This document shows, in pieces, positions 1-59,272 of a stretch of 64,000 bases of DNA (positions within the stretch are counted from its first letter, which is position 1; every line of letters starts with the position of its first letter). The position numbers and the translations under genes were made by a program. Under the pieces are notes generated by a model that saw only the letters and a list, made by a program, of their open reading frames with translations, was not told the origin of the DNA and did not search any database. The stretch spans positions 1 to 64,000 of IMG/VR virus record IMGVR_UViG_3300020049_012431; one strand, given 5' to 3'. The DNA is from a virus. Lineage: Duplodnaviria; Caudoviricetes.

Positions 1-365
1 ATTCATTGTATTTAATTTGGACGCAGCTTTATCTAAGTCTTCTCAGACCTTGAGACATTCGTGATGCCCGAACCTTATTTTTTATTTCAGCTCGGCGTAT
101 GTATTTGAGACAGTTGGCTTTTCGCTAGGTCCATATTCCCACGGTTCCTAGTCAAGATTGTTTCAGGGGCCTTGAGTCTTCGCAGCTAGCCAGTGTTATC
201 CGGTTGTACGCATTTTTCACGGTCCAAGTGTCTCATATATATATGTTTGGATTGCTGCTGTGTTCTTTTTAAATATTTTTTTATTTGTATCCTGTTGATT
301 TTACTCGAGGTATGGCCCGGCCTGTAAAAACCCCTATAGTTTTTTCTGATAATATCCGACATAAT

Positions 366-4302: not shown

Positions 4303-4874
4303 TAGTCTGGACAAAACAATTTGGTCGAGGTGTTTTTGCTTCACAAACATATCTACCCGGCGACACTATAGAGGTCGCTGAGATAATTCCTTTCACGCCA
4401 CATGACACCGAGACAATACTAAATACAAAGCTTCGACTGTATACCTACAAGTACAACAATATAATGGACTGTATTGTCCTTGGTAATGGTTGTTTATACA
4501 ATCATAATGAAAAACCTAACGTATCCTATGTCATCGAACAAAATAGCACTGGCAGACCTGTTATGGTGTTTAAAGCGTTGAATCATATTAGAACATATGA
4601 CCAGCTTTTTGTCTCATACACGCAGGATAGCCCCGGCCTTGATGTAACAGCCTATGTTGGGACCTATGCGAAAGAAACTGAATCCTTAGATAGAGAATTA
4701 GACATTGGTCCGGAGTGTTTTTTGAAATCGAGGGCGTTCTATGTTAGCCTTTTAGATTCTAACAAAAAAATCACTTTACGTATTTTACAAAATTATTTTC
4801 CTAATGCTGATTGGTGTCAAGCCCATATAGACGAAAGAATTAATAGGGGCGAATTGATTTATAAAGATAGGTGA
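4299..4874 (+). CDS. SET-domain protein (putative lysine methyltransferase) with C-terminal extra domain
   Basis: GRGVFA, LYNHNEKPNV (NHS motif) and LFVSY SET signatures. Confidence 0.85.
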   Translation: MIVWTKQFGRGVFASQTYLPGDTIEVAEIIPFTPHDTETILNTKLRLYTYKYNNIMDCIVLGNGCLYNHNEKPNVSYVIEQNSTGRPVMVFKALNHIRTYDQLFVSYTQDSPGLDVTAYVGTYAKETESLDRELDIGPECFLKSRAFYVSLLDSNKKITLRILQNYFPNADWCQAHIDERINRGELIYKDR

Positions 4875-4877
4875 GAC

Positions 4878-5102
4878 ATGCGAAAAAGACCAATAAAGAC
4901 ATCAAACGCATTCTTAGATAGAAGACTAGACCTTGGACCAAATGCAGAAAGTAACGTTATACAGTTTTATATGAATATTTTATATAGAAACAAAAAAATC
5001 ACTTTACGTGTTTTGCAAAAAGATTGTCCGAATTCTGATTGGTGTCAAGCCGATATAGACGAAAGAATTAATTTAGGTATTTTAAAATATGAGGGTACGT
5101 GA
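4878..5102 (+). CDS. Stand-alone paralog of the SET protein C-terminal domain
   Basis: NKKITLRxLQxxxPNxDWCQAxIDERIN shared with the end of 4299-4874. Confidence 0.75.
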   Translation: MRKRPIKTSNAFLDRRLDLGPNAESNVIQFYMNILYRNKKITLRVLQKDCPNSDWCQADIDERINLGILKYEGT

Positions 5103-5719: not shown

Positions 5720-6064
5720 ATGTACATAGTAGCATATTTTGAACGTGTCTTTGTCGATGAGGCAGCTAATGGTGATGATATATTAGAGACTGGTTTGTGT
5801 CAGTATGACATTAATGATGATTTAATCGACAATGAAGTGAGTTTAGATCGTCACCAGTTAACTGATAACAGTAGTGTAAATGTTGTTGACGGCATTAAAC
5901 CGATTGAAACTAGTGGTAGTGATTGGGAAACTGACGAGGGCGATCAGGAAACAGTTTACAAACTATATCCTATTTCATTAAATACAATAAAATACCAACC
6001 ATTGAATGCGACATTTTTAGTTGATACAGTTGAAAGGTGGGTTCGTGACACACTTAATAGTTGA
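5720..6064 (+). CDS. Acidic hypothetical protein
   Basis: 114-aa ORF, AGGAG SD. Confidence 0.65.
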   Translation: MYIVAYFERVFVDEAANGDDILETGLCQYDINDDLIDNEVSLDRHQLTDNSSVNVVDGIKPIETSGSDWETDEGDQETVYKLYPISLNTIKYQPLNATFLVDTVERWVRDTLNS

Positions 6065-6305
6065 AAACTCGGTAACAAGCGCCAAAGAATTAAAATCAGT
6101 ATCCTATGAGCTACCTAGCTACGATGTAGGGTACGAAGTTACATATCAGTCTAAAGGATTAGACATAGAAGCTGTAATTATTGGTTTTAGATTAGATGTG
6201 CACATAGGTGTCGATGATGAGCTATGTACACAGGTTACATATTATTTGGATAATGGTGATGCTGTCCTTGAAGACGAGATAACATTTTACGCCGAACCGA
6301 TGTAA
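6021..6305 (+). CDS. Hypothetical protein (start uncertain, probably GTG ~6045)
   Basis: 94-aa ORF in tandem. Confidence 0.5.
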   Translation: MIQLKGGFVTHLIVENSVTSAKELKSVSYELPSYDVGYEVTYQSKGLDIEAVIIGFRLDVHIGVDDELCTQVTYYLDNGDAVLEDEITFYAEPM

Positions 6306-6635
6306 CGTGTTGTTCTCGCTTGTTGCTTCACAACACACATCCTAAAGAGACTTGCAACATGAGCATAGCCTATTAGTAAAGCGCCGCCTTACTATCAGTT
6401 ACGCTCAGCACACTATGTTTAAATTCATGTGTGAGTATGTTATGCTCCGTAGATACAATACCTATAACGTATCTATGTCAGTCTGTTTGGGCTTTCCGCT
6501 AGGTCCTAGATCTTCGTTCGGTTCCTAGTACGTGAGCTGCTAGCTTGGGAAACAAGGTTGTTTCCTGTAGGCACGCTTAGTCGTTTCTCTCAAAAGGTTC
6601 TTAAACAGTTTTTAACGGTCCCAAAACAGTTCGCA
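6306..6635 (-). ncRNA. Candidate structured non-coding RNA, homologous to ~100-230
   Basis: ORF-free, several hairpins, directly downstream of a minus-strand TTGACT-17-TACACT promoter; shares motifs with 100-230. Confidence 0.5.
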
Positions 6636-6640
6636 AATGC

Positions 6641-6669
6641 AGTGTATAATATTTAGACACAAAAGTCAA
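6641..6669 (-). promoter_or_regulatory. Sigma70-type promoter, leftward
   Basis: TTGACT (6669-6664), 17 nt, TACACT (6646-6641) on the minus strand. Confidence 0.65.
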
Positions 6670-6679
6670 GAGGAATAGT

Positions 6680-7060
6680 ATGAAGCACTTCAAACTAAGG
6701 AAAGATTTAAAAATAGATTTTTTTGGTATAAGGTTATACCGTATTGAAGCCATCAAATCTGGACCTTGGGGACCAGTAGGTACTTTAGGTGGATATATTG
6801 AAAGAAAAAGTAATTTATCAGATAACGCATGGGTATTCCGTGATGCTAAGGTATATGGTAATGCTCGAGTATATGGTAATGCTAGAATATTTGGTAATGC
6901 TTTGATGTTCGATAATGCTCACGCGTTTGATAACGCTTTTATATCAGGAAATGCTCGAGTATGTGGTGCCGCTCGGATATGTAATAACGCTTTAGTATCT
7001 GGTAGTGCCTATATATCTGGTAATATACAGGTATCTGGTAATACTATAATAGATGAATGA
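6680..7060 (+). CDS. Hexapeptide-repeat (left-handed beta-helix) protein, paralog 1
   Basis: Repeated xGNARV/xDNAxV hexapeptides. Confidence 0.85.
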   Translation: MKHFKLRKDLKIDFFGIRLYRIEAIKSGPWGPVGTLGGYIERKSNLSDNAWVFRDAKVYGNARVYGNARIFGNALMFDNAHAFDNAFISGNARVCGAARICNNALVSGSAYISGNIQVSGNTIIDE

Positions 7061-7259
7061 AAAAAAATTAGGAGAGAATATGGATAGAAAATTTGAATAT
7101 AGTCGCGGTACCGAGTATACTTGTATTGTTATTGTTAGTGAAGAGTTTATGCGAGTCACGTTCAGTAACATAACTTGTCCGCAAGGTACAACAAATGAAA
7201 TAAAAGAAGCCTTTTTAGATGAGGCAGAATTAGCTGTATTTAAAGCTTTAGAGGAGTAA
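7053..7259 (+). CDS. Hypothetical protein (likely start 7080)
   Basis: AGGAG SD before 7080. Confidence 0.55.
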   Translation: MNEKKLGENMDRKFEYSRGTEYTCIVIVSEEFMRVTFSNITCPQGTTNEIKEAFLDEAELAVFKALEE

Positions 7260-14097: not shown

Positions 14098-14589
14098 ATG
14101 AAAAAACTAACAGTAAATTTATTAACTAAAAACGATTACAATATCTTGCGACAGATTGTAAAACGCTTTACAAAAGACGATATGCGTACTGATGAACTGT
14201 TACACGTTGTATTGCTTCGATTACTTGAAAAAAATACTGAATTTAATCCCGGTATGTTTTATGTAGTTACTAGGAACGAATTAAGTAGACTAAAGCGTCA
14301 TAGAGACATACCAAGTGATGATGATTCTTTATTTGAACAAATAATAGAGACCAATTATATTTTAGATGGTTTTAAAAAATTAAGCACACATTGTATTTTT
14401 AATAAAACAGAAACAAAAGCGATCAATTGTATTGTTGATAAAAAACAGGATTTGCGTGATATAGATATTAAAAGGTCAACACTAAACTCTGCTGTTCGGT
14501 CTGTTATAAAAAAAATAAGAGAACAAAACAACATAGATGTATCATTACCTATATATATTGGAGGGAAAAACGGTGAGCACAAGAATTAG
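14098..14589 (+). CDS. Possible ECF-like sigma factor / transcription regulator
   Basis: DELLHVVLLRLLE...RNELSRLKR (region 2-like) and a C-terminal HTH-like segment (RSTLNSAVRSVIKKIR). Confidence 0.45.
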   Translation: MKKLTVNLLTKNDYNILRQIVKRFTKDDMRTDELLHVVLLRLLEKNTEFNPGMFYVVTRNELSRLKRHRDIPSDDDSLFEQIIETNYILDGFKKLSTHCIFNKTETKAINCIVDKKQDLRDIDIKRSTLNSAVRSVIKKIREQNNIDVSLPIYIGGKNGEHKN

Positions 14590-58002: not shown

Positions 58003-59070
58003 TTACGAAGCTTTAAGATTACTGATAAGCACTGAGCGACCTGGACGTGCGCAAAAAATTGCCTGGTCTGTGTAACATCTCAACTCATATCCAGCGTGAT
58101 CTTCTAGTTCACGGAAGAAGTTACCTTCTTGACCTGGACGTTTGAAAGTAACGTCAGTAGAACCAACGCGTACCCAGTCTTCCAAGCAAAGAACATAAGC
58201 AAAACCTTCTTTTACATAGATAGAAGGAACGATTTCAACCATACCATTTTGTGAATGGAATTTGATTGATTTAGATCCGTTCTCAGCTTGTGCAGAAGAG
58301 AATGAGCTGTCATACATACGTAAAGCAGCTTGCTCAGTTAACAAATCATCCCAGTGTGAAGGATTGACAAGAACCATTACGTCAGTGTCAAGACCTTTTT
58401 CAACACCTTTGCTGATTGCTTGTTGCAAGATTGCAAAAGACAATACAGAAGTGGATGCTGGAGCAAAAGAGCTTCCTTTCCACAAATCATAGCTAGATGC
58501 ACTGATACCGAAAAGAGTACCTGTGTTAGACAAGATTTTATGGATACCAGCAAATTCTTTACCAGCAGCACCTTTGTGCAAGATACGGTCATTAGCAACA
58601 ACTGCTGCTGCTACGGCTGCATCTGCTGCAGAAAGAGTGATAGTTTTGCTGTTCAAATCTACAGAAGCAACAGTAGCAGAAGCGCCACCACGTAATGTAG
58701 TAAGAGTTGGATCATAGATCTCAATTGGCATACCAACTGCACCTGACCAGATACCTGGAGCAAATTCAGAAGATTTGATTGTGATTACAAGACCAACCGC
58801 AATAGCATTAGCCAATCCATACTCAAGTTGTCCATAGATAGCTTCGATTTCAAGCTTCTTTTGGATACTGTCAAGCATAGAACCAACCAAGTACTTAGTA
58901 GCTTCTTCAAACGCGCGCTCTCCTGGACCCATAGATCTAGAAGCTTGAGCGTAAGGCATAGCCGAACGTAATACTAGCTGGTAGCCTTTAACTACAGCAT
59001 CTTTAATTTGTCCCGCAACTGGCGGATTCAATGCAAATGCACCTTCAGTGTCATCTGCGAACGTAACACC
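58003..59070 (-). CDS. Major capsid protein, exon 2 (355 codons)
   Basis: GVTFADD...GQIKDA...RCYTDQAIFCARPG; large ORF between scaffold gene and terminator. Confidence 0.85.
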   Translation of the reverse strand, partial: GVTFADDTEGAFALNPPVAGQIKDAVVKGYQLVLRSAMPYAQASRSMGPGERAFEEATKYLVGSMLDSIQKKLEIEAIYGQLEYGLANAIAVGLVITIKSSEFAPGIWSGAVGMPIEIYDPTLTTLRGGASATVASVDLNSKTITLSAADAAVAAAVVANDRILHKGAAGKEFAGIHKILSNTGTLFGISASSYDLWKGSSFAPASTSVLSFAILQQAISKGVEKGLDTDVMVLVNPSHWDDLLTEQAALRMYDSSFSSAQAENGSKSIKFHSQNGMVEIVPSIYVKEGFAYVLCLEDWVRVGSTDVTFKRPGQEGNFFRELEDHAGYELRCYTDQAIFCARPGRSVLISNLKAS

Positions 59071-59272
59071 CATTTTGTTACTCACTTTTCAGTGGGAGAA
59101 ACCTCTTCGGATTTCTCTCAACCCCTTCTTTTGTTATAGGGTTGTTCAGACTATCGCATCCCTTTCGGGTCCTCTCACTTAGTCGTTCACGCTGCTTTCG
59201 CTTGCGCCCTGTTGTCCGCTTCCGGAGTTCCAAGTCAATCAGAGAAGATTTATACAGCCCCTAGTTAAATTG
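59071..59272 (-). mobile_element. ORF-less group I intron (202 nt) in the major capsid gene
   Basis: P1: exon CAGCCU pairs with GGGCUG with a U-G pair at the splice site; P3 UCUC/GAGA; P7 GACUA/UAGUC; P8 CCC-GAAA-GGG; P9 hairpins; terminal G; removal restores the frame. Confidence 0.9.

Follow-up and report, generated by a model that had tools for sequence, protein, structure and literature searches.

An intergenic stretch of ~290 nt in the early region of a phage genome, positions 6352-6640 of the sequence analyzed here, is very probably a real, functional folded non-coding element. The window, i.e. the whole stretch of DNA that was analyzed, comprises bases 1-64000 of a 78,734-bp IMG/VR virus contig (class linear, completeness 94%). 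We put the chances about even that the element works as a cis-acting RNA in the rightward early transcript, heading two gene blocks; both this strand and the cis-acting role are what we infer. It would then be transcribed as part of a rightward (+) polycistronic early mRNA and serve as a leader or intercistronic cis element at the head of two successive gene blocks, and read-through, processing or stability of the transcript could be controlled by the element together with the promoter/RBS cassette attached at its 3' side. The structured-element family is new relative to Rfam 15; the kind of object is already known.

Judged by gene content, the phage architecture is that of a phiEco32/SU10-like podophage. 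The predicted genes include those for a family-B DNA polymerase, a DnaB-like helicase, ERF, a PD-(D/E)XK nuclease, a Dam-type methylase, a P22/SU10-type portal, TerL, Lon and ClpP proteases and an amidoligase/ATP-grasp cluster. The plus-strand gene block runs from ~69.5 kb through the contig ends to ~33.6 kb, with the late genes on the minus strand. Within this block lies a gap of 374 nt (6306-6679), bounded by an 86-aa gene (6045-6305), whose start agrees with gene calls in other assemblies, and by a 126-aa beta-solenoid gene starting at 6680. The GC content of the gap, 41-44%, is higher than the genome background. The 126-aa protein (PF18836-type; 6680-7259 region) corresponds to the N-terminal 60% of homologs of ~210 aa, and downstream of its gene there is an A8 run and a 68-aa ORF, where relatives call a 59-aa gene.

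The initial annotation, made from the sequence alone, had described the stretch as ORF-free and flanked by genes that are all on the plus strand, and both statements hold. No plausible gene was found in 6306-6679: the two internal ORFs, 6352-6528 (+) and 6601-6756 (-), have the negative codon log-odds of spurious ORFs, while the neighbouring genes score positive. The only open frame is in addition disrupted by 6-nt and 4-nt indels in hairpin P4 (see below), so that a coding explanation can be set aside. A 5-codon mini-ORF (ATG..TAG; 6359-6376) in the 5' domain is kept in all three sequence types described below; it lacks a clear RBS and is probably just a by-product of the stem sequence. Searches for known RNAs were equally negative. 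No match at the Rfam 15 gathering threshold was obtained with the window or its relatives, and relaxing the cut-off to E<=10 for the same sequences gave only noise (sR1, mir-280, rli51). ARAGORN found no tRNA, tmRNA or tRNA-like gene in the 64 kb. In a blastn search of public phage records, the match was limited to the hexapeptide-repeat gene.

Relatives were traced through protein-cluster look-ups of the neighbouring small genes, which led to contigs from many assemblies. The phage occurs in the JGI samples 3300020037, 3300005664, 3300076239 and 3300055046 and in the runs SRR9852189, SRR11088372, ERR4408289/90 and SRR32119641. The gap is present in 10/10 related phage contigs, which fall into three types: seven window-like contigs (L130, L132-L136 and L141), the pair L138/L140, and L144. 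In the window-like contigs it is exactly 374 nt long and 96-99.7% identical to the window, with the flanking ORFs at 90-97%; the ORF for the 126-aa protein drops to 71% identity in L136. The core, 6352-6640, is 97.5-99.7% identical in the close relatives and 85% identical in L138 and L144, where the flanking ORFs align at 67-84%. The structured element is thus better conserved than the flanking ORFs in every relative compared. L144 has different neighbours, namely a longer upstream ORF and no 126-aa gene, yet the core is still kept. Two segments are invariant across all three sequence types, a 43-nt tract (6577-6619) and a 12-nt loop (6457-6468).

Beyond these contigs the element disappears. 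Exact-motif scans of viral, metagenome and genome collections gave no true relative, and the 116 metagenome motif matches are due to chance, with no similarity in their flanks. IMG/VR holds a single distant relative, G001 (82 kb, PolB 67% aa identity), which is syntenic; neither DNA comparison nor the covariance model detected the element in it. The syntenic site in G001 is occupied by an antisense DUF559 endonuclease gene (L005:5360-5875) and a spacer of ~170 nt. This DUF559 (Vsr-like) gene is free-standing and antisense, and probably represents a mobile homing endonuclease; the spacer contains an 11-nt reverse-complement match to the invariant 12-nt loop, outside any hairpin there. The gap has no similarity to the DUF559 gene and is not a decayed copy of it, and its constant length of 374 nt in close relatives argues against decay of a gene or transposon end in general. 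The possibility of a degenerate transposon end had been raised in the initial annotation; neither residual protein similarity nor terminal inverted repeats were found. The structured element is, so far, seen solely in one narrow phage lineage.

Described without assigning a strand, the conserved core has two parts: domain B1 at the 5' side (6352-6482), which is unique, and module B2 at the 3' side (6483-6629). Outside the core, the segment 6306-6351 adjoins the stop codon of the 86-aa gene and carries a hairpin (6307-6313/6330-6336) that is invariant in the window-like sequences and loses its outer pair in L138. This is the GTGTTG/CAACAC stem, one of five stems that had been proposed from the sequence. 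All five exist at the positions given for them, and three of them are now backed by compensatory changes in relatives: TAGATAC/GTATCTA, GGAAAC/GTTTCC (6548-6565) and the CTAGG/CCTAG hairpin. The GTGTTG/CAACAC stem is present as well, but it stands apart from the conserved core, and L144 lacks the segment 6306-6351, its place being covered by the coding sequence of the longer upstream ORF. The remaining one, GAGCATA/TATGCTC, can be drawn but never covaries, has two of its pairs broken in one relative and faces competition from local alternatives, for which covariation was not seen either.

Within B1, hairpin S4 (6448-6477) has a 9-bp stem (6448-6456/6469-6477), of which the TAGATAC/GTATCTA pairing is a part, and a 12-nt loop, AATACCTATAAC (6457-6468), that is 100% conserved. 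Across the three sequence types (alignment A10), four of its pairs show double compensatory changes and a fifth alternates between G.U and A-U. Hairpin S2 (CACAC..GTGTG, 6409-6433), likewise supported by covariation, has double changes in two pairs, and in L144 its stem is rebuilt with a shifted register. The candidate hairpin S1b (6374-6394; 6+2 bp, 3-nt loop) has an invariant stem without covariation, apart from one A.C in L141, and a loop that reads GCC, ACT or ACC. No paralog of the B1 domain was found.

The B2 module is closed by P1 (6483-6491/6620-6629, with one bulged nucleotide), in which a G-C pair becomes A-U in L138 and a U-A pair becomes G.U in L144; A, T and G all occur as the bulged base. 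P1 encloses the CTAGG..CCTAG hairpin P2 (6499-6528; 6499-6506/6520-6528), which has an inner CC/GG pair and an A-U to G-C change in L138, and then P3 (6530-6534/6572-6576), which spans 6530-6576 and encloses P4 (6548-6554/6559-6565). The outer pair of P3 occurs as A-U, G-C or A.C, and the adjacent pair as C-G or U-A. In P4, an A-U pair is replaced by G-C in L144, and a shorter hairpin remains after the 6-nt and 4-nt deletions. The S4 loop (CCUAUA) is predicted to contact UGUAGG at 6566-6571. The 43-nt invariant tract (6577-6619) follows, its 3' end formed by the block TTTTTAACGGTCC. Between P1 and the downstream TATAAT, 3-4 nt (6636-6639) are hypervariable, with four versions among the relatives. 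In alignment A9, the four-helix model (P1-P4) comprises 28 pairs that are 99.4% paired. Double-sided changes are found in six of these pairs, a value reached by none of 500 shuffles, and controls in which the partner was slid gave 0-1. Covariance analysis with homologs therefore shows helices kept by compensatory substitutions (six pairs in B2, four in S4), and such substitutions back five helices: S4, P1, P2, P3 and P4. Covariation, conservation above that of the flanking genes and the lack of an Rfam match together bear out the original proposal of a multi-stem structured non-coding element outside the known families.

The B2 module has a paralog in the same genome, element A (97-243), in which a stem (97-117/224-243) encloses a P2 hairpin (125-151) and internal hairpins of its own. 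The initial annotation had noted that the CTAGG hairpin recurs within 100-230, and indeed the genome has exactly two copies of the motif CTAGGTCC-N-GGTTCCTAG, one at 125-151 and the other at 6499-6528, each on the plus strand; shuffled sequences have none. By blastn, 98-152 aligns with 6468-6529 (E ~8e-4), and element A carries the block TTTTTCACGGTCC, the counterpart of the block at the 3' end of the invariant tract, which is common to both copies. A covariance model of B2, R1, matches element A at 24-26 bits, in the window (106-235; 24.2 bits) and in L141, L142, L143 and L144; it gave no match in G001. A joint alignment of A and B2 contains seven pairs and 17 cells with double changes, including one P1 pair that occurs as G-C, U-A and A-U. 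The interiors of the two copies differ.

Element A lies in the leader of the first early gene and is oriented as B2. In L143 it lies within an 861-nt non-coding stretch ahead of an SLT-type transglycosylase gene. A plus-strand promoter-like site, TTTACA-17-TATTAT, is located ~100 nt upstream of A and is conserved in L143 and L144; no clear promoter-like site was seen upstream of B2. The first early gene (366-851) encodes a secreted SLT-type lytic transglycosylase with a lipoprotein-like signal, MKKIILVTTLLFCC, an unusual place for a cell-wall enzyme. In L143 (1648-3612), moreover, position 78734 at the right of the contig is connected with position 1 at its left, and the connecting sequence, which includes the 861-nt stretch, contains ~1.6 kb that is absent from the record. 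G000, L141 and L142, which are independent assemblies, each start within ~20 nt of window position 1, and this shared start may reflect a physical end of the genome or else the border of a repeat.

Which strand carries the function cannot be read from folding, as the single-sequence folds are -88.4 and -89.1 kcal/mol on the two strands, with z ~-2.2 each. Some pairing changes are tolerated on the plus strand only: G.U to A-U at 6449.6476 (G.U in four sequences), G-C to G.U at 6447, the U.G at 6533.6573 in L130 and the G.U in P1 of L144. Others pair on the minus strand only, being A.C on the plus strand: 6365.6402, 6530.6576 in the window, 6454.6471 in L144 and 6379.6389 in L141. The well-supported compensations run from Watson-Crick to Watson-Crick and are therefore compatible with either strand, and since the cells with G.U on the plus strand and those with A.C on the plus strand are similar in number, covariation does not fix the strand. 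The antisense orientation put forward in the initial annotation thus gains no preference from the wobble asymmetry or from folding.

The context favours the plus strand, through read-through, the gene-like orientation of both copies and the promoter-like site upstream of A. No terminator-like site was found on either strand between 6250 and 6700. With no terminator between the upstream gene and the element on the plus strand, read-through transcripts must contain the element. Immediately 3' of the core, the plus strand carries TATAAT (6645-6650), a short 5'UTR and the RBS GAGGAA (6670-6675) ahead of the ATG at 6680. This 35-nt segment (6645-6679) is 97-100% conserved, even in L144 (97%), where it precedes another gene. 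The cis-acting RNA is supported by the core moving with its 3' TATAAT/RBS segment though the downstream gene differs in L144, and by both copies being oriented like all surrounding genes. Against it stand the absence of the element from the sole more distant relative, G001, the existence of a conserved 9/12 promoter match on the minus strand, and pairing changes of the minus-only kind that are about as many as those of the plus-only kind.

The TATAAT has a poor -35, and an extended -10 at 6643-6650 was rejected, as the bases preceding TATAAT are GTG and not TGn. The plus-strand sequence CAGTGTATAATA (6640-6651) shows a resemblance, and a resemblance only, to tAATGTATAtA, the middle/late (gp36 sigma) promoter motif of phiEco32/SU10 (PMC4281155). 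Recurrence of the phiEco32-like motif in the window was not above chance. A weak Sigma70_r2 match (15 bits, below the cut-off) was seen at 14140-14253, in a 163-aa ORF (14098-14589); from this match, the ORF may encode a diverged phage sigma factor like phiEco32 gp36.

Other than a cis-acting leader, the element could be a stand-alone antisense RNA of ~290-330 nt, transcribed leftward from the minus-strand site TTGACT-17-TACACT (6669-6641) with a start near 6634, and either targeting read-through plus-strand transcripts or acting in trans. This was the reading of the initial annotation, and we consider it unlikely. The site is there, with an optimal 17-bp spacer, it is conserved in all relatives that reach it, L144 included, and 5 nt separate the predicted start from P1 (3' arm); an A.C on the plus strand, which is a G.U on the minus strand, is tolerated in several helices, and the consensus fold of the minus strand is nearly as good (-81.5 kcal/mol, compared to -86.1 kcal/mol for the plus strand). 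However, the promoter had been called clean, and 9/12 matches such as this one are at the level of chance, with 42 in the first 9 kb versus 32 +/- 7 in shuffled sequences. Its conservation can be explained equally well by the overlap with the plus-strand TATAAT, 5'UTR and RBS, and a promoter of the element's own gains no support. In addition, a minus-strand terminator was not found, no homologous minus-strand promoter is present at the corresponding place in element A, and minus-strand pairing is broken by other polymorphisms, for example at 6449.6476 in four sequences.

An action at the level of DNA appears improbable. Here, single-stranded or extruded DNA would fold into the hairpins, which would serve as a replication origin or priming site, in cassette recombination, or in packaging. 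Such a role would fit the G.T and A.C mismatches, which occur at similar rates with no strand preference, and the presence of two copies per genome. It would also fit a conserved island amid variable gene cassettes (other neighbours in L144, a divergent 126-aa ORF in L136) and the fact that independently assembled contigs break at or beside both copies. The initial annotation had itself allowed for a replication origin, but neither iterons nor a clear AT-rich unwinding region were found in the gap; a repeat search detected no direct-repeat family there apart from the A/B homology, and CTAG and GGTCC counts are ordinary genome-wide. The helices are also short and interrupted, more like those of RNA domains. 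The invariant loop and the 43-nt tract suggest sequence-specific recognition of a single strand, which would apply to RNA and ssDNA alike.

There is a similarly small likelihood that the element represents a new class of large (~290 nt), modular phage ncRNA, its 130-150-nt module reused in the early leader, that acts on the transcription or replication machinery. It might in that case be a put-like element that modifies RNA polymerase, or a two-strand primer/antisense control unit, rather than a simple mRNA leader. More doubtful still is that both strands are functional, with a structured transcript of the sense strand interacting with an antisense RNA complementary to it, and the hairpins of both under selection. 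Plasmid RNAI/RNAII and CopA/CopT are sense/antisense RNA control pairs of this sort. The mixed wobble pattern, the equally good folding of both strands and the overlapping back-to-back promoter-like sites (plus-strand TATAAT at 6645-6650, minus-strand TACACT at 6646-6641) would agree with such a pair, but sense and antisense loops are complementary by construction and need no conservation, while the S4 loop is nonetheless invariant; strand-specific events are also few.

Several known phage systems resemble the arrangement proposed for the cis-acting RNA. Among antitermination sites, those of HK022 (put) are ~70 nt with two stem-loops, and lambda nut is a boxA plus a 15-nt boxB. Like putL/putR and nutL/nutR, the elements here are two paralogous, sense-oriented structured elements near the starts of early blocks, with stems kept by compensatory change. 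In contrast to these, the module has four helices in 130-150 nt and is accompanied by a separate domain of 130 nt, and no sequence similarity was seen. The RNase III sites in the T7 early region, which are single irregular hairpins of ~60 nt, are likewise paralogous structured intercistronic elements in one polycistronic early mRNA. By comparison, the closing duplex of element A is long, at ~20 bp, and P1 of copy B has 9 bp. The PeSL (promoter-early stem-loop) cassettes of T4-type phages are ~50 nt and present in many copies, and they share with our elements a repeated promoter-plus-hairpin unit beside variable small early genes; the difference is that here there are two large copies with a covarying multi-helix structure. 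The put/nut, T7 RNase III and PeSL analogies may thus serve as leads to function.

The early region of phiEco32/SU10 (PMC4281155) is alike in genome architecture and in having a non-coding spacer within the early gene array, whereas no DNA similarity to known phages was found here and the sigma-like match is weak. More generally, 10,006 candidate structured RNAs have been reported in phage intergenic regions (Fremin, Bhatt and Kyrpides 2023, PMC10690425). The element is like these candidates in being a conserved intergenic element of an uncultured phage, upstream of genes, with covariation and no Rfam family, and differs from them in being large (~290 nt), multi-domain and partly duplicated in the genome.

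The early regions of phages are usually seen as rows of small genes of unknown role. In this one, a non-coding element is conserved more tightly than any of the genes beside it, and this conservation, together with covariation and the partial duplication at the head of the early region, suggests a regulatory device, for host takeover or for early-to-middle switching. The lineage is phiEco32-like and has never been cultured. If the strand and the partner were identified, the element would provide a new RNA (or ssDNA) regulatory family and a handle on how early transcription is organized.

Two further features of the genome were recorded. The putative major capsid protein (58003-59085) shares 91% identity with its G001 counterpart, compared to 45-67% for most other proteins, and this difference in sequence identity suggests either a recent exchange or a much stronger constraint on the capsid gene. 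The early region also contains repeats (809-875, 1102-1168, 1317-2156 and 4736-5102), consisting of a 65-nt repeat that occurs twice, a 33-nt repeat that occurs four times and a duplication of 139 nt. These repeats sit in intergenic and gene-end segments, a distribution suggesting that cassettes of small early genes were duplicated.
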